Program-made: the position numbers and the translations under genes
Source of the DNA: a virus
Lineage: Duplodnaviria; Heunggongvirae; Uroviricota; Caudoviricetes
Virus record (IMG/VR): IMGVR_UViG_2877982868_000014
Reading direction: 5' to 3' (one strand)
DNA length: 64,000 nucleotides
Shown: piece after piece, positions 1 through 39,300 of the stretch
Layout of the letters: the number at the start of each line of letters is the position of its first letter
Numbering within the stretch: the first letter of the stretch is position 1
Notes under the pieces: model-generated
The model's input: the letters and a program-made list of their open reading frames with translations, nothing else
Told to the model about the DNA's origin: nothing
The model's database searches: none

Positions 1-738
1 TCACTCACTCTCTTTTAAACCAGTTTTAACTGTTTGTGGTTTTGGGTAAGGCTGGACTTTGAATAGCTTTGTGTTGAGGCGTTTTCTGGCCCTCTTGTTC
101 AGAAACCGGATGTAACGAAACTGACGGAATTTATGAACACTGGCTCTGTCGATATTAGCCCTCAGATGTTCACCTCGCTGTCCGCCTCGTTTAATGGCAT
201 TCCTGCAAATCTCGTGATACCACTCGCCATCAAGTTCATAGAATGTTGATTCGTGGCTGCCTACATAATCAAAATTGCTTGCCTGATACACGACACCAAG
301 ACAGCCACAACGCTCATCTGCAAACGACTGAACCCACTGTACCTGCGGATAAAGCTGCCTGATTAGCTTGAGCGCGTAACTGATTGCCCTTGATTCGGAG
401 TTTCTCGGCATACAGTCATGCAGCCATAACCGGTTAAGCTCCATATATTCACGGTTCCGCGTGCCCGTTACGACGCGTGCACCACTGTTTGGATTAAGGG
501 CATAGCCCCATTGCATTACGCCAACCAGCTCCCGTTCTGAAAATATGCCCAGATGAAGGTAGGAGTTATTTACGAAACGGTGGCTGTAATGTTTATTGAC
601 GATGACCAGTCTGGCCAGCCAGCAACTTATTGTCTCAACCCGCAACTCACGGGAGCCATAACCAACGATATTGTCGTTATAGCGAATAAGTTCAGGCGTG
701 CTGATGATACGGGATGTGACTTGCTTTCTGTTCCCCAC
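1..738 (-). CDS. mom: DNA modification protein Mom (Mu Mom family)
   Basis: 245-aa [47 protein letters not shown]... and ...[26 protein letters not shown] are recognisably Mu Mom. It is the last gene after gin and com, as in Mu. Confidence 0.9.
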
Positions 739-892
739 GACAGGATTTCCTTGTGTATGTGGGGTGCTCTGTGGCGCTCGGAGATGTGATTTGATTGAGG
801 GTTTTACAGCGCGGACATTTTACTTCCAGATAACTGAAACTGGCCCGTGCCAGTAGCTTATTGCAGTGTCGGCACCGTATGTTTCGATACAT
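692..892 (-). CDS. com: Com, zinc-finger translational activator of mom
   Basis: 66 aa from the ATG at 892, preceded by SD AGGAGG (903-908). Two CxxC pairs (CRHC, CPRC) as in Mu Com. The 3' end overlaps the mom start. The ORF-track start at 937 is a TTG with no SD. Confidence 0.75.
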
Positions 893-1090
893 GGCCGCAT
901 AACCTCCTGCTTTGTTGTTGATGCCTTTCTCATGCAATCGATCGACAAAAACGATCGATTCGATTTGTTTAATTGATACAACAAATAGATTGAAAAGTCA
1001 TCAACAATGATTCAGGGCGGTGATTATTTACTTAAAGAAAACGAAGACTTAGGTGGTGAAAACGATCATAAAATGATCATTTTATTGACT
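893..1090 (-). promoter_or_regulatory. com-mom upstream control region with clustered GATC sites in palindromes
   Basis: Four GATC sites (940, 953, 1064, 1075). Two lie in AATCGATCG-N7-CGATCGATT (936-960) and one in the 14-bp palindrome AAAATGATCATTTT (1070-1083). The position corresponds to the Dam/OxyR-controlled Pmom region of Mu. Confidence 0.5.
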
Positions 1091-1162
1091 TTTTATACAG
1101 TGAAGGTAGGATCGCGCGTATATGTAGTATGTTTCAAATCAACAGGATACTACATAAAGGGA

Positions 1163-1190
1163 GGTCCAGATAGTTACAGCTATCTGGACC
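1163..1190. repeat. perfect 11-bp inverted repeat with 6-nt spacer
   Basis: GGTCCAGATAG-TTACAG-CTATCTGGACC. It lies about 100 bp upstream of the plus-strand zinc-ribbon ORF. Confidence 0.8.
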
Positions 1191-1293
1191 TGGAACAAAT
1201 TCGCATCAATGCTTTACTTCGAGCTCGTGTCGTATCCTATGATATTCCCCGGTCTCCTGTAAAGCAGAGATGCATAAAAAGGAGATCTTTATC

Positions 1294-1464
1294 ATGGATA
1301 AAGAGCCTGTTTGCCCTGCCTGTAAGACTCCCTTACAGCTCATCTATCGCCGTTCTCGATCTCAAAATGGCAAGACATACAAACCCCAAAATGCGTCCTG
1401 TTTCAGGATGCTGATATGTCCTGCCTGTTCTCCCCGGAGGGAAAGTACACAAAACGTGCATTAA
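1294..1464 (+). CDS. small zinc-ribbon protein (56 aa), hypothetical
   Basis: ATG at 1294 preceded by AAGGAG at a 9-nt spacing. Two CPAC motifs (CPACKTP...CPACSPR). Followed by the hairpin at 1474-1493. Confidence 0.5.
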   Translation: MDKEPVCPACKTPLQLIYRRSRSQNGKTYKPQNASCFRMLICPACSPRRESTQNVH

Positions 1465-1473
1465 CAAATTCAC

Positions 1474-1493
1474 CCGGCAGGGAAACCTGCCGG
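1474..1493. terminator. hairpin between convergent genes (8-bp GC stem, GAAA loop)
   Basis: CCGGCAGG-GAAA-CCTGCCGG. On the minus strand it is followed by a T-rich tract. The U-tract on the plus strand is weak. Confidence 0.55.
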
Positions 1494-1502
1494 TCGGTAT
1501 TG

Positions 1503-1748
1503 TTACATCATAGTACCGTCAGTTCCGGGCTGAACCGGCTCTGGTTGCTCTACGGCTTGAGGCTCATTCTCCGTGCTGTTTTCAGCCGGAGAATGGCCAA
1601 CCATTCGGGCCAGCACTTCATCAACATATGCGTCGATTTGTGCCTCAAAATCCTTGCGAACCTGCGCCTTCAGCACGCGGTTCACTTCTTCAGAATAAAG
1701 TGCCTGTTTGACAAGCTCTTCAGTAACCGTGCCTTTAATCTCTGGCAT
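1503..1748 (-). CDS. small acidic hypothetical protein (81 aa)
   Basis: ATG preceded by AAGGAG at an 8-nt spacing. Non-repetitive, helix-prone, acidic sequence. The opposite-strand ORF 1416-1877 looks like a shadow ORF. Confidence 0.6.
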   Translation of the reverse strand: MPEIKGTVTEELVKQALYSEEVNRVLKAQVRKDFEAQIDAYVDEVLARMVGHSPAENSTENEPQAVEQPEPVQPGTDGTMM

Positions 1749-1783
1749 GAATATTCTCCTTTTGCAGGTATATTGCCCCGTTA

Positions 1784-1966
1784 TCAGAGCGGGGTCGGGT
1801 CGTTTGGGGATGACGGTGCCTGTGCTGTTTTACTGAGTTTTTCAGCTGCCGCATCATCAATTTTACGGCGAATATAATTTCTGATGACCTTATAACCGCC
1901 GCTCACCAGATATAACGCACTGACCACTGCGCAGAAATAAAGCAGCATTGTATGAACGAATGTCAT
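1784..1966 (-). CDS. small membrane protein (60 aa, one N-terminal TM segment, basic then Pro/Ser tail)
   Basis: ATG preceded by AAGGTAAGG. Hydrophobic stretch MLLYFCAVVSALYLVSGG followed by KVIRNYIRRK. Confidence 0.55.
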   Translation of the reverse strand: MTFVHTMLLYFCAVVSALYLVSGGYKVIRNYIRRKIDDAAAEKLSKTAQAPSSPNDPTPL

Positions 1967-2034
1967 ATAACCTTACCTTTGATATTGACTACATAATTCG
2001 TTATCGGGTAAAAACATCGAAGCGACTGATAACC

Positions 2035-2059
2035 ACTCCTTCGGGAGTATTTTTATTTT
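2035..2059 (+). terminator. intrinsic terminator, plus-strand orientation
   Basis: ACTCC-TTCG-GGAGT followed by ATTTTTATTTT. No plus-strand ORF ends here. Confidence 0.6.
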
Positions 2060-2078
2060 CCTTTATGGGTTAGGTAGC

Positions 2079-2114
2079 TCCCGCCAGCCATATCATGACC
2101 GGCGGGATTTTTTT
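2079..2114 (+). terminator. intrinsic terminator, plus-strand orientation
   Basis: TCCCGCC-N15-GGCGGGA followed by T7. The T-run overlaps the stop codon of the minus-strand esterase gene. Confidence 0.6.
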
Positions 2115-4152
2115 ATTCTGTTACCGCTTTTTTCACTTCCACCACAATGCTGTCAATCAGCACCGGGTAAGTTGCATTTTTTGTGATATCCGTTACGCGG
2201 AGTTTGTCCACCGGGAAAGTTCCTACTGGTGACTGCGTCAGGGTAAACGCGGCACCATCCTGACCATCAATAACCGGAATAACCTGAAGGCTGTTATTTC
2301 CTGCAAAACGGAAGGCCAGCGTATGCCATTCATTATCAAATGCACCAAAGGTTCCCAGTTTCTGGTTATTTGTTGCCACTTTTGCATTGTGGTACATCAC
2401 ATTCAGGTCTTTTGCGTCTGTCTGGATGTAGAACGATGCCAGCAGATTATTCCCTGCATCCCCTGTCAGGGTGACACCCTGCGGCAGAGAGGAAACCGGC
2501 CAGTAAAGCGCCATGACATACTGGTTTGCCACCAGGTCGCCCGGTACTTTAAAACGACAACTGATTAAACCACCATTTTTCAGCAGTTCAGCACCAGTAC
2601 CGGCATCATGATCCAGATACCAGGATGATTTACCTGTTTCCTTGGTCAGTTTCATTGCCTTACCACCTGTGCCTCCTGCATCACTGATAATTTCAGCTTT
2701 ACCGCCAGCCGGCTCCCAGCCCTGGGCTTTCAGATTTCCTTCTGACTCACTGACACGGTAAGACAGCAGTGTTGTGGTTACTGCTTCAGTTTCTGAAGGT
2801 GACGGCACTGGTGCTTCAGTTTCAGAAGATGGAACATCGGCTTTTACTGTGGTTCGCCCCGCATGAGTCAGAACTGCCGTGGCCAGACGGTCGGAAATAA
2901 TCCCACGACGTGCCCATGAACTGAAATGGCTGGCCCGGTCCGTAGATGTCCAGGTGGCGGCACTGTTACGCCACGTTGAGCCGTAATAACCAATGGATTC
3001 AATATCCGGGTCTTCTGCCGGATTGTTGGTGGGTACATTCGCGCCATTTTCATCTGTCATTAATGGGACGAAATGAATGTTTTTATCTGTTTTATTTTTG
3101 TAGCCGTCATAGATTGCCTGGTATGCCTGTTCGTTTTTCTGTTTCCAGAAATACGTGGTATCACCACAAATCCACGGAACGCCAGCAGCACTGCCACCGG
3201 TACACTGTTCCGCCTGTTCAGCCAGGTCTGCGCGGAATTTTTCCACCATCGCCAGAAACAGCGCAGAATGCTCCGTCGGCTTCGCATCAATATCAAACTC
3301 GCCCTGCATCCACACCACAGCAAGCAGGCGGTTTTTCGGGTTCTTCGCCAGTGCCGCTTTTGTCCGGCTGATTAAGTCCTTATACAGCGGCTTATCCACA
3401 CCCCAGCGGGCTGAGTCCTCTGAAGCACCCGTGCTGTCACTGTACGTGCCGTCAGCACCCGCCGTGAATGCAGAACCACCACGGCAGCAGGGAACCAGCA
3501 GAATCCCCGCATCTGCCGGAATAAACGGCAGCAGTTTTTTGGCAATGTGAAGCCCCTGACCCACGGTGCCATATTGCCCTTTAGCCACATCCGCTTTCGG
3601 GTGATTTTTTCCACTCATATCCTGCACATCATGCAGACAGTGGTCGGCCAGAATGATGTCGTTATACTGACAGGCTTTACCTCCCGGCGTGACTGTACTG
3701 CGACGGGCTAACTGCATAATACGCGGTTCGGGGCGGTCATATGTCTCCGGCAGTGGCAGACCTTCACCGTAAGCCATACCGTTTGACTGACCAGCAAGAA
3801 CCACCACGTAATACCAGGAAGGGGAGCTGGAAGCAGTTTCATTTCCTGACGGACGGGTATGTGTTTCAGCATTATCCCAGTCTGACGGTTCAGCAGTACC
3901 GGCAACATCAGCACTTAACGGAATGACCGCACCAATACCCGCTCCGGTAATTTCCACACTCGGATCACCGGATACTGGCCTTACCCACAGGCAATCCCGT
4001 GTATTAAAACTGATGAGACAGTCAGCAAATGTCATTCCTCCTTTTGTTTCGGCCGGAGGAAAGGGAGCCTCAAGAAATGCCGCTGTACCACCGGAAACTT
4101 TAACAGTAAAGTTTCCGGGCATTGATGATAGTTGAACCCATTTGGACGTCAT
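2113..4152 (-). CDS. SASA/DUF303-family carbohydrate esterase (NanS-like sialate O-acetylesterase) with C-terminal lectin-like domain
   Basis: 679-aa ORF. Catalytic-type blocks VVVLAGQSNGMAYG and VVWMQGEFD are typical of the sialate O-acetylesterase family. The C-terminal ~190 aa resemble a LamG/concanavalin-type fold (inference). Mu has no gene between gin and com. Confidence 0.7.
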   Translation of the reverse strand: MTSKWVQLSSMPGNFTVKVSGGTAAFLEAPFPPAETKGGMTFADCLISFNTRDCLWVRPVSGDPSVEITGAGIGAVIPLSADVAGTAEPSDWDNAETHTRPSGNETASSSPSWYYVVVLAGQSNGMAYGEGLPLPETYDRPEPRIMQLARRSTVTPGGKACQYNDIILADHCLHDVQDMSGKNHPKADVAKGQYGTVGQGLHIAKKLLPFIPADAGILLVPCCRGGSAFTAGADGTYSDSTGASEDSARWGVDKPLYKDLISRTKAALAKNPKNRLLAVVWMQGEFDIDAKPTEHSALFLAMVEKFRADLAEQAEQCTGGSAAGVPWICGDTTYFWKQKNEQAYQAIYDGYKNKTDKNIHFVPLMTDENGANVPTNNPAEDPDIESIGYYGSTWRNSAATWTSTDRASHFSSWARRGIISDRLATAVLTHAGRTTVKADVPSSETEAPVPSPSETEAVTTTLLSYRVSESEGNLKAQGWEPAGGKAEIISDAGGTGGKAMKLTKETGKSSWYLDHDAGTGAELLKNGGLISCRFKVPGDLVANQYVMALYWPVSSLPQGVTLTGDAGNNLLASFYIQTDAKDLNVMYHNAKVATNNQKLGTFGAFDNEWHTLAFRFAGNNSLQVIPVIDGQDGAAFTLTQSPVGTFPVDKLRVTDITKNATYPVLIDSIVVEVKKAVTE

Positions 4153-4251
4153 AATAATCAGCCTGTTCCTGAATAAACTGAATTATCATATCCACAGACC
4201 GATAAACGCCATTTTGCGTTAATTCAGTAAAGGCCCAACAAAGAGAGCGTC

Positions 4252-4812
4252 TTATTTTTCCGAAACGCTCGCAGGATAATAACGATAAAGGGTTGAAAGA
4301 CCGATATCAAAAATAAGTGCCACCTGTCTTCGACTGACACCCCCGGCCAGTAAACGCCCGACCTGCTCGTATTGTTCCTGCGTGAGACGGCGGGGTCTGC
4401 CGCCGGTTCGTCCCCTTTCACGGGCAGCTGCAAGACCAGCCCGTGTCCGTTCGACAATTAATTCACGCTCCATTTCTGCCAGCGCACCCATTATGTGAAA
4501 AAAGAAGCGCCCCATGGGGGTTGACGTATCAATGTTGTCAGTAAAACTACGAAAATTTATCCCCTGTTGCTGTAATTCATCTGTCAGCGCAACAAGGTGG
4601 CGCATACTGCGCCCCAGCCTGTCCAGTTTCCAGACCATCAGCGTGTCACCGGGTTTTAGTTTCTTCAGTGCCCGCTTCAGTCCCGGCCGCTGTGTCGTTT
4701 TACCACTCATTTTGTCTTCAAAAATCTGCTCACATCCTGCACATTCCAGCGCATTTCTTTGTAAACCTGTGTTCTGGTCATTTGTTGATACGCGTATATA
4801 GCCAATCAGCAT
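4252..4812 (-). CDS. gin: Gin/Hin/Pin-family serine DNA invertase
   Basis: 186 aa. MLIGYIRVSTNDQNTGLQ... carries the catalytic Ser motif, with a C-terminal HTH. Adjacent to the gix site at 4867-4892. Confidence 0.93.
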   Translation of the reverse strand: MLIGYIRVSTNDQNTGLQRNALECAGCEQIFEDKMSGKTTQRPGLKRALKKLKPGDTLMVWKLDRLGRSMRHLVALTDELQQQGINFRSFTDNIDTSTPMGRFFFHIMGALAEMERELIVERTRAGLAAARERGRTGGRPRRLTQEQYEQVGRLLAGGVSRRQVALIFDIGLSTLYRYYPASVSEK

Positions 4813-34807: not shown

Positions 34808-35736
34808 ACCTGTGAGAGTAATTCAGGGTTGGTATAAACCTCTTTAAAGGCCGCATTAATATGTTTTTCTGTCAGCGCCGCGCCTTCACCGCTGGCGGTG
34901 AGCCACGCCTGGTTAAGCGTATGTGTCAGAACGCGTAACGCTCCCGGCTTTTCAGCGATAGCCTGCATGACGGCCAGCTCGGCCTCACCACTGATCCCCC
35001 ACGCCCTGGCAATGGCCAGCACATCCGCCTTTTTGGCCTTGCGAAGTTGTTTTGTACGGGCAAGACGGCTGAACAGGCGCGATAAATCATCAAAGGCGCG
35101 GCGTCCACCTTTAAACAATCCGCGCGGGTTACCAATAAGCACCATCCCGATCCCCGTGGCGTCCTGAATTGCCCGGAGTTGCTCCAGACCGTCAATACCA
35201 AGATGATCCGCCTCATCCACAATCACCAGTCCACGCGTTCCCATCAGGCGACGGCGGATGGCGCGGGATAATGCCCCTTTGTTCGCGCGGGTGTAATCAA
35301 TCCCCAGCGCATCGGCCAGCTCCAGCAGACACTCCGTGACGCTGGAGTGCGCGGGTGACAGGGTGATCATCCAGGTGTTTGGTTGCTCCTGGCAGTAATT
35401 ACGGGCAGTGGCCGTTTTACCCACACCCGGTACGCCCACAATAACGTTAATACAGCCCATCAGACGAACCGCCTGAAACAGTGCGCGCAGCTCCTGGACT
35501 GTCTGCGTTTCCACAAACTGCGGCGGTTCCGGCAGTGCGCTTTGTTTATTCCAGTTCTCATACCAGGAACGCAGGGAAGCAGCCACAGCAGCGTTATCGC
35601 CTTTATATTTTCCCTTACGGAAAGCCGATAATGTGCCGTCGGAAATTCCCGCCTCTCTGGCGATGGCATACTGCGTCAGTACGCCGCCATCAATAAGTTC
35701 ATCAATGGTCTTGATTACATCGTTAATATCAGTCAT
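34804..35736 (-). CDS. B: MuB-like AAA+ ATPase, transposition target DNA activator
   Basis: 310 aa. N-terminal HTH, Walker A GVPGVGKT, Walker B LVIVDEADHL. Directly downstream of the transposase gene. Confidence 0.88.
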   Translation of the reverse strand: MTDINDVIKTIDELIDGGVLTQYAIAREAGISDGTLSAFRKGKYKGDNAAVAASLRSWYENWNKQSALPEPPQFVETQTVQELRALFQAVRLMGCINVIVGVPGVGKTATARNYCQEQPNTWMITLSPAHSSVTECLLELADALGIDYTRANKGALSRAIRRRLMGTRGLVIVDEADHLGIDGLEQLRAIQDATGIGMVLIGNPRGLFKGGRRAFDDLSRLFSRLARTKQLRKAKKADVLAIARAWGISGEAELAVMQAIAEKPGALRVLTHTLNQAWLTASGEGAALTEKHINAAFKEVYTNPELLSQV

Positions 35737-35807
35737 ATTATTAACCTCTCATTTGATACCTTGTTTAATCAAATAACCTGAGTCGCCGCTCGGGTTATTT
35801 TTTTATT

Positions 35808-38943: not shown

Positions 38944-39135
38944 GCGCCATCGCTATCATGAGGTGGTGCTGTAAATACATATAGAGATCATATGACTCAT
39001 CCCAAGATAATCACGCTATTGAATAGTAATTCATGATGATTATCATACTGATTATAGTTAGATCGATTATGTGAGCATTTTGGCAGTTTGAAGATGTTTT
39101 GAAGATGTTTTGAAGAAGATTTTAAGGGTAAATTA

Positions 39136-39300
39136 GCAGTATCAAATGTGTCGCCGTTTTTTGATCTTTTGACTATTTGTTGAGCAGTCGGTATCAAAAA
39201 GAGTTTTCCGTCCGAAGTATACATCACCTGTTTTATTTCAGCATCTTACAGGTGATTTCACCTCCTTTCACTAAAACCCTTGTCGGTATCAAATGATTCA
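39136..39300 (-). repeat. Mu-type left end with three transposase-binding-like repeats
   Basis: TTTGATACCGAC at 39282-39293 and 39187-39198, variant ATTTGATACTGC at 39136-39147 (minus-strand reading). Terminal dinucleotide TG at 39300. Confidence 0.7.

Follow-up and report, generated by a model that had tools for sequence, protein, structure and literature searches.

A probable NanS-p-type esterase cassette with an N-terminal domain of its own in the gin-com slot of Sp18-type Mu-like prophages

In phage Mu, a spacer of 94 bp separates the end of the invertase gene gin at 35673 from the start of com at 35768. The IMG/VR virus record IMGVR_UViG_2877982868_000014 raises the question of what can occupy this same place in a relative of Mu. 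The stretch of 64,000 nucleotides analysed here, called the window in the following, is Escherichia coli O157:H7 DNA with an Sp18-type Mu-like prophage, and its gin-com interval measures 3359 bp, taking the com ATG at 892 that is given by the Prokaryotic Genome Annotation Pipeline (PGAP). With the upstream TTG at 937, which an earlier sequence-only reading of the window had chosen, the interval is 3314 bp. That reading had described the interval as extra DNA which is missing in Mu, and the comparison of ~3.36 kb with 94 bp bears this out; the four open reading frames (ORFs) that it had placed there are all present in the ORF list. Our answer to the question is that positions 1503-4152 probably represent a NanS-p-type esterase cassette, homologous to the one of lambdoid Shiga toxin (Stx) phages and fixed in the gin-com slot of the Sp18 lineage.

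The largest gene of the interval encodes a protein of 679 amino acids (aa). Pfam recognised the SASA family at aa 116-312 (E 5.5e-12) and DUF6645 at aa 524-642 (E 4e-70). Using phmmer, residues 104-428 were matched to 3PT5, the structure of E. coli NanS (YjhS), with E 5e-118, and residues 459-674 to 6YP6, the solved C-terminal jelly-roll of NanS-p, with E 3e-112. Thus, both the NanS-type esterase and the lectin-like C-terminal domain that had been proposed from the letters were recovered. Block I (GQSN) and block IV (RSSH/RASH) of the NanS-type SGNH fold, as defined in PMC10462455, are both kept, the latter as RASH. Equally kept are Y545, Y550, Y575 and F646, the equivalents of Y510, Y515, Y540 and F611 in vb_24B_21, four aromatic residues that were proposed as carbohydrate-binding in this phi24B protein (PMC10462455). 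The suspected kinship to the NanS-p cargo of lambdoid Stx phages was also confirmed, with 78% identity to NanS-p of Stx2-1717 over aa 102-673 (BLASTP) and 77-81% DNA identity between window positions 2124-3818 and many Stx phages. In the case of chromosomal NanS, the identity of the catalytic domain is ~65%, a value estimated by us from the alignment and not given by a tool. Altogether, homology strongly supports the assignment of the 679-aa protein as a putative NanS-p-type sialate O-acetylesterase. The NanS-p proteins of EDL933 and O104:H4 are active esterases on 5-N-acetyl-9-O-acetylneuraminic acid (Neu5,9Ac2), enable growth on it and de-O-acetylate mucin glycans (PMC8065619). Activity on Neu5,9Ac2 or O-acetylated mucin would be expected here too, given the 78% identity to a family whose relatives were assayed.

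The new element of the locus is the N-terminal domain; the cassette as such is known from Stx phages and is annotated in strain Sakai. The N-terminal ~100 aa had been called unrecognised from the start, and they remained so: aa 1-78 match no Pfam family, and aa 1-101 stayed unaligned in BLASTP against the Stx2-1717 NanS-p. The DUF1737 family gave no Pfam match in the window protein, compared to E 1e-15 in gp44 of Stx2-1717, and an hhalign comparison of the N-terminal domain with DUF1737 returned a probability of 0.15%. AlphaFold2 (AF2), run with a seven-sequence alignment, predicted a small beta-barrel; for the whole 679-aa protein, single-sequence AlphaFold reached a predicted local distance difference test (pLDDT) score of 33. 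Judging from these comparisons and from the model, DUF1737 of lambdoid NanS-p is replaced here by an unrelated, predicted beta-barrel of ~80 aa.

A HMMER search of the N-terminal domain in 1.84 billion representative proteins gave five matches. Four of them represent N-terminal pieces of proteins of this kind, which in two cases extend into the esterase domain; the fifth, a repeat protein, was judged spurious. A word-indexed protein search returned fragments from E. coli, Shigella and Salmonella only, and a scan of the GTDB species-representative genomes for this domain found nothing. The Salmonella enterica fragment is 29% identical, and its gene lies just downstream of the invertase in a Mu-like prophage. 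Overall, the domain was met solely in NanS fusions, and the readable genomic contexts, in E. coli and Salmonella, are all Mu-like prophages. In this S. enterica locus (GCA_037428405.1; L116, 9426-9910) two added small ORFs of 58 and 87 aa stand between the invertase and the NanS-like gene, the 87-aa one with a weak Xre-like helix-turn-helix match, and the contig stops inside the esterase gene.

Two small genes complete the cassette. The 60-aa DUF1378 protein is basic (isoelectric point 9.3) with one hydrophobic helix at its N-terminus; the 81-aa DUF826 protein is acidic (isoelectric point 4.4) and 47% identical to the DUF826 part of Stx2-1717 gp45, whose gene comes after nanS-p. In Stx phages, DUF1378 and DUF826 proteins are encoded between nanS-p and the holin gene (PMC10462455). 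Because both families also follow nanS-p there, the esterase, DUF1378 and DUF826 genes form one cassette that is common to two unrelated phage types. The idea that gp45 is a simple DUF1378-DUF826 fusion was dropped, as BLASTP of DUF1378 against the N-terminal half of gp45 came back empty. Rfam and PADLOC gave no match for the region or the small proteins, and NCBIfam gave nothing above its cut-offs.

To describe the distribution of the cassette, a survey of IMG/VR was anchored on Mom and was therefore independent of NanS. Where Mom was at least 97% identical, all 26 loci carried the cassette, and gin and com were 3.3-3.7 kb apart. Where Mom was at most 83% identical, none of the ~54 loci did, and the gap was 97 bp wherever a Mu-type gin was present. 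Among 5,426 complete E. coli genomes, Sp18-type com-mom was found in 232, the Sp18-type N-terminal DNA in 204, the whole 3.4 kb at megablast level in 166 and an alternative esterase allele in 43. Both divergent genomes inspected, HH35 and FORC_069, have the cassette in the same gene order with a 61%-identical N-terminal allele. As a whole, ~4% of the complete E. coli genomes carry it, mostly Shiga toxin-producing E. coli and bovine isolates. Because every Sp18-lineage locus examined has the cassette, it is a fixed feature of this lineage and not sporadic cargo, so the transferable moron module suggested by the sequence-only reading is not an occasional one on this phage. The same reading had named, as a result that would speak against it, uniform carriage of these genes by related phages as virion components; within the Sp18 lineage, the uniform carriage is what was found. 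In the Sakai prophage Sp18, the cassette is annotated as ECs_4993-4995 with ECs_4996 next to it, and has been in GenBank since the genome publication in 2001. Sp18 is intact, spontaneously induced and packaged (PMC2669165).

Important insight can also be drawn from the variation between loci. The com and mom genes are 94-100% identical across loci while parts of the cassette vary independently. In the case of four loci (L016-L019), identity to the window is 95-99% from gin through the N-terminal domain, falls to 46-72% in a sliding comparison from ~3800 to ~1800 (esterase, C-terminal domain and DUF1378; 38-45% amino-acid identity in the C-terminal domain), and returns to 97% at DUF826. In L016, the breakpoint lies at the end of the linker: the sequence is shared through ...ASSSPSWYYV and diverges thereafter. 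The N-terminal domain therefore stays with the Mu backbone, and the esterase, jelly-roll and DUF1378 form an exchangeable block, which is shuffled by recombination among alleles that differ from each other as much as do the nanS-p copies found within the same genomes. In matching E. coli genomes, nanS-like places number 3 in the median and 12 at most, and in the window strain the Mu-like prophage sits within a lambdoid prophage; recombination partners are therefore near at hand. An apparent integrase-linked copy turned out to be a truncated Mu-like remnant.

Regarding expression, the cassette genes share their strand with gin and the late genes, and no intrinsic terminator was predicted on the - strand between 3168 and 5000. 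Because no terminator is predicted in between, the esterase would be made in lytic growth, probably as the late tail-fibre/gin transcript reads through into its gene. The protein sequence has no N-terminal hydrophobic segment and therefore no Sec signal; lacking a signal peptide, the enzyme would stay cytoplasmic and reach its substrate only on cell lysis. The N-terminal domain would take the role of the capsid-binding DUF1737 of lambdoid NanS-p. Mucin sialic acids would be de-O-acetylated with the assistance of the jelly-roll domain, and N-acetylneuraminic acid (Neu5Ac) would become available to surviving lysogens and/or the mucus be conditioned for the phage. Several results weigh against this view of a fixed, NanS-p-type cassette. 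The Mu C-protein site TTAT-N6-ATAA has no exact match in the window, and its one-mismatch matches are not at relevant promoters; sigma-70-like matches are no commoner than in shuffled sequence; sequenced phages yielded no donor of the L016-type esterase allele; and neither ECs_4993 nor any Mu-borne NanS-p was the subject of a paper in the literature search. In the upstream regions of the late operons that were inspected, no defensible shared motif was seen.

What the enzyme does for its carrier can be explained in several ways. We tentatively entertain that it is tethered to the virion, the N-terminal beta-barrel binding the Mu-type particle so that the esterase decorates the phage. In phi24B, the virion contains the NanS-p homologue gp84 in abundance, and the DUF1737 of gp84 forms hexamers on the capsid hexons, with cleavage proposed at SSP-containing linkers (bioRxiv 10.64898/2026.04.10.717836), and it is exactly this domain that is replaced here. 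The junction in the window protein falls just before YY(V/F)VVLAGQSN and its linker bears SSSPS; moreover, the N-terminal domain was found only in NanS fusions, in Mu-like prophages where the context is readable, remains linked to the backbone in loci with an exchanged catalytic part, and as an ordered domain is not needed by a free enzyme. A tethered esterase may aid adherence to or movement through O-acetylated sialomucus, or modify a receptor, and may later be released at the linker as proposed for phi24B gp84. However, the model shows a cupin-like barrel of generic type, for which no decoration or tail protein gave a significant match, and no co-variation was seen between N-terminal alleles and the major capsid protein: where the N-terminus is 60% identical, the capsid proteins are 97-98% identical, and a capsid protein that is 91% identical is found both in a NanS-less phage and in one with a 100%-identical N-terminus. 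Phage Mu has no such protein, and for phi24B, a podovirus whose capsid is different, the evidence comes from one preprint. The more specific proposal by analogy, that the barrel would be an unrecognised virion anchor retargeting the esterase from lambdoid capsids, which are bound by DUF1737, to the unrelated Mu-type particle, is in our view somewhat doubtful.

A classical moron, i.e. an autonomous unit expressed from the repressed prophage so that the lysogen gains access to Neu5,9Ac2 independent of the lytic cycle, would be in line with the growth on Neu5,9Ac2 that NanS-p alleles give to enterohaemorrhagic E. coli (EHEC; PMC8065619), and with the accessory right end as its place, which is variable in Mu-like phages, Mom being replaced by methyltransferases in some (genome row H99; PMC3299994). 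We nevertheless consider it unlikely: without a signal peptide, an enzyme from an intact lysogen has no obvious route to an extracellular or periplasmic substrate, nanS-p is late and induction-dependent in Stx phages (PMC8065619), the guanine-plus-cytosine (G+C) content of the cassette is not distinct from that of the adjoining gin and mom, and presence/absence among close relatives was not seen, the cassette missing only in distant lineages (Mom at most 83%). Stable hairpins follow the esterase gene and DUF826, but no convincing own promoter was found and promoter-like matches stay at chance level. The moron interpretation is only partly supported, the cassette being fixed in the lineage and one of the four genes lying outside it. 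Instead of mucin sialic acid, the substrate could be another O-acetylated glycan, for example the O-antigen, capsule or colanic acid of the host bacterium, with the enzyme aiding adsorption or release. This was raised for NanS-p (PMC8065619) and would agree with C-terminal domains that are down to 38% identical between alleles, as expected for shifting glycan specificity. It appears rather improbable, as the catalytic domain has the above ~65% estimated identity to chromosomal NanS and 78% to NanS-p enzymes acting on Neu5,9Ac2, and the four aromatic binding residues are all kept. Finally, the adjoining ECs_4996-like gene, frameshifted in the window strain and many others, could suggest decaying passenger DNA with no current function. 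This is highly improbable for the cassette itself, as the esterase ORF is intact, and so annotated, in the genomes inspected, catalytic and binding residues are kept, and the divergent alleles all retain the three-domain architecture and the two small genes.

NanS-p esterases have been counted and studied as EHEC fitness factors on lambdoid prophages. The preferred reading, a NanS-p-type cassette fixed in the Sp18 lineage, means that the same cassette is also fixed in another temperate phage type, unrelated to the first, in which only the N-terminal domain is phage-type-specific and which recombines the cassette as a block among highly divergent alleles. If the virion anchor were true, NanS-p would primarily be phage structural or mucus-interaction factors and not morons of benefit to the lysogen. 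Together with the preprint on the capsid-binding DUF1737 of phi24B, the locus thus offers a natural experiment on whether NanS-p is for the particle or for the lysogen. In practice, the Mu-borne copy should count too in strains deleted for all nanS-p alleles.

Table 1. Coordinates of the cassette, its domains and the neighbouring features in the window.
Feature	Position	Strand	Evidence or remark
mom	1..738	-	Pfam Mom, E 4.5e-77
com	692..892	-	Downstream cassette boundary; Pfam Zn_ribbon_Com, PGAP coordinates
Inverted repeat AATCGATCG-ACAAAAA-CGATCGATT (N7 spacer) with two Dam GATC sites	936..960		45-70 nucleotides upstream of com ATG
ECs_4996-like gene, frameshifted here	1007..1464	+	PGAP 'frameshifted'; phrog_26524
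Hypervariable hairpin with 12-bp stem, inside the ECs_4996-like ORF	1162..1191 (context 1149-1275)		Three alleles, compensatory stem changes
G+C-rich hairpin between the convergent DUF826 and ECs_4996-like ORFs	1474..1493		-21.9 kcal/mol, z -3.6
DUF826 protein, 81 aa	1503..1748	-	Pfam E 2e-15; phrog_311
DUF1378 protein, 60 aa	1784..1966	-	Pfam E 1e-38; phrog_494
13-bp hairpin directly after the esterase stop codon	2079..2107		-23.2 kcal/mol, z -4.5
Esterase ORF, 679 aa	2113-4152	-	
C-terminal jelly-roll lectin-like domain (DUF6645), aa 459-679 and stop codon	2113..2778	-	phmmer to 6YP6, residue mapping
SGNH/SASA sialate O-acetylesterase domain, aa 113-428	2869..3816	-	phmmer to 3PT5; GQSN 121-124, RASH 406-409
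Predicted disordered linker, aa 79-112, with 'ASSSPS'	3817..3918	-	pLDDT ~40; recombination breakpoint at linker end
N-terminal domain, aa 1-78, predicted small beta-barrel	3919..4152	-	AF2, pLDDT ~80
gin-esterase spacer, 99 bp	4153..4251	-	Weak consensus promoter match ATGACG/TATCAT (4152-4125) at 3' edge
gin-type serine DNA invertase	4252..4812	-	Upstream cassette boundary; Pfam Resolvase (E 6e-51) and HTH_7

The fourth of the ORFs that had been taken as cargo needs a different explanation. The esterase, DUF1378 and DUF826 genes stood as cassette members, but the 56-aa zinc-ribbon ORF represents the end of the ECs_4996-like gene, which belongs to the backbone and is frameshifted here. On the + strand, this ORF ends at 1464 and comprises 64 aa from 1270 or 56 aa from the ATG at 1294; the 56-aa version, with its CxxC...CxxC pattern, has its own AGGAG ribosome-binding site. 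In Sakai, ECs_4996 is intact with 154 aa, and a 1-nucleotide indel separates the Sakai and window states. In two Mu-like IMG/VR loci without NanS (L062, L063), a 43%-identical homologue is found next to com in divergent orientation. Because the homologue adjoins com where NanS is missing, the zinc-ribbon ORF lies outside the lambdoid-type cassette, and the ECs_4996-like gene belongs to the backbone com-mom neighbourhood. The gene is split at the identical point in the window lineage (1294-1300) and in the distant L062 (~6438), immediately ahead of the zinc-ribbon part (...SLSW|M(D)KEPVCP), and is fused in Sakai and L063. These could be two sometimes-fused genes, or the result of recurrent frameshifting at one site.

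Further variation was observed around this gene. The interval between DUF826 and com (window 893-1502, with equivalents in L006, L007 and L008-L061) is a variable slot, with 20 versions of 463-933 bp in 49 loci. Other small ORFs in this slot include an 86-aa ORF on the + strand in HH35 and a 66-aa ORF on the - strand in FORC_069, and no Pfam or PADLOC match was obtained for the ORFs of the slot. The hairpin at 1162-1191 shows alleles and indels among loci with ~97-100% identical flanks, the indels shifting the frame of the ORF, and in the longer variants L013 and L061 the hairpin-bearing segment is present as a tandem duplicate. This hairpin could serve as a terminator, mark a recombination junction or represent a small palindromic element. 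The hairpin at 1474-1493 is likely a bidirectional terminator. In the case of the hairpin at 2079-2107, a U-run is found on the + strand side only, so that it looks like a terminator for opposite transcription, antisense to DUF826/DUF1378, and not for the esterase.

The surrounding lambdoid prophage is visible at the other end of the window, where a truncated gene for tail assembly protein T (~39113-39295) is followed by tail, head and terminase genes (region ~39100-64000). The lambdoid tape-measure gene lies across the insertion, beyond the window, to the left of position 1. An inserted Mu-like phage of the same type is also found in the GenBank Stx phage records LC727881 and LC727895.

In comparison with known systems, the right end of the prophage is that of Mu, D108 and SfMu, with flanking genes alike in identity, order and orientation. 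Mom is ~80% identical (79.9% at the amino-acid level to Mu Mom) and Gin ~74% (74.6% DNA identity of Mu gin to window 4423-4811). The 94-bp spacer of Mu contrasts with 3.36 kb here, and Mu, D108 and SfMu-type relatives are without the cassette. The inverted repeat at 936-960 occupies the place of the Dam/OxyR-controlled region of Mu Pmom; in Mu the spacer has three GATC sites and the C-protein site TTATGCCCCAATAA, whereas here a two-GATC inverted repeat is found and the C-site consensus is missing. As this consensus is missing window-wide, mom may be regulated differently in Sp18-type phages than in Mu.

The architecture of the esterase resembles that of modular tail fibres and tailspikes, in which the N-terminal part is kept with the backbone and the catalytic or binding part is swapped at a linker, as here. 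The SGNH deacetylase tailspike gp63.1 of phage G7C is an example of such a modular protein. Unlike those of tail fibres, the gene of the window esterase is not in the tail operon but downstream of gin. In the case of chromosomal NanS (YjhS, 3PT5), the catalytic domain is homologous over its whole length, and the window protein differs in its added N- and C-terminal domains and in being phage-borne. Chromosomal NanS, a product of the nanCMS operon, has a single domain and reaches the periplasm by means of a signal sequence.

The closest likeness is to NanS-p of Stx phages (L0105/z1466 of 933W, gp84 of phi24B, which is vb_24B_21, and gp44 of Stx2-1717), with which the window protein has SASA/SGNH and DUF6645, the catalytic blocks and the binding aromatics in common. 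Like the window protein, these lambdoid proteins are without a signal peptide, and their genes are likewise followed by small genes of the DUF1378/DUF826 families. The differences concern the carrier, a transposable Mu-type myovirus here and a lambdoid phage there, and the place, between gin and com here and between stx and holin S, downstream of Q/stx, in the lambdoid phages. Unlike nanS-p of Stx phages, the window gene neither adjoins lysis genes nor is under the Q-antiterminated pR' promoter. Above all, Stx-phage NanS-p begins with DUF1737, which is capsid-binding in phi24B, whereas the window protein would begin with an unrelated beta-barrel of ~80 aa.

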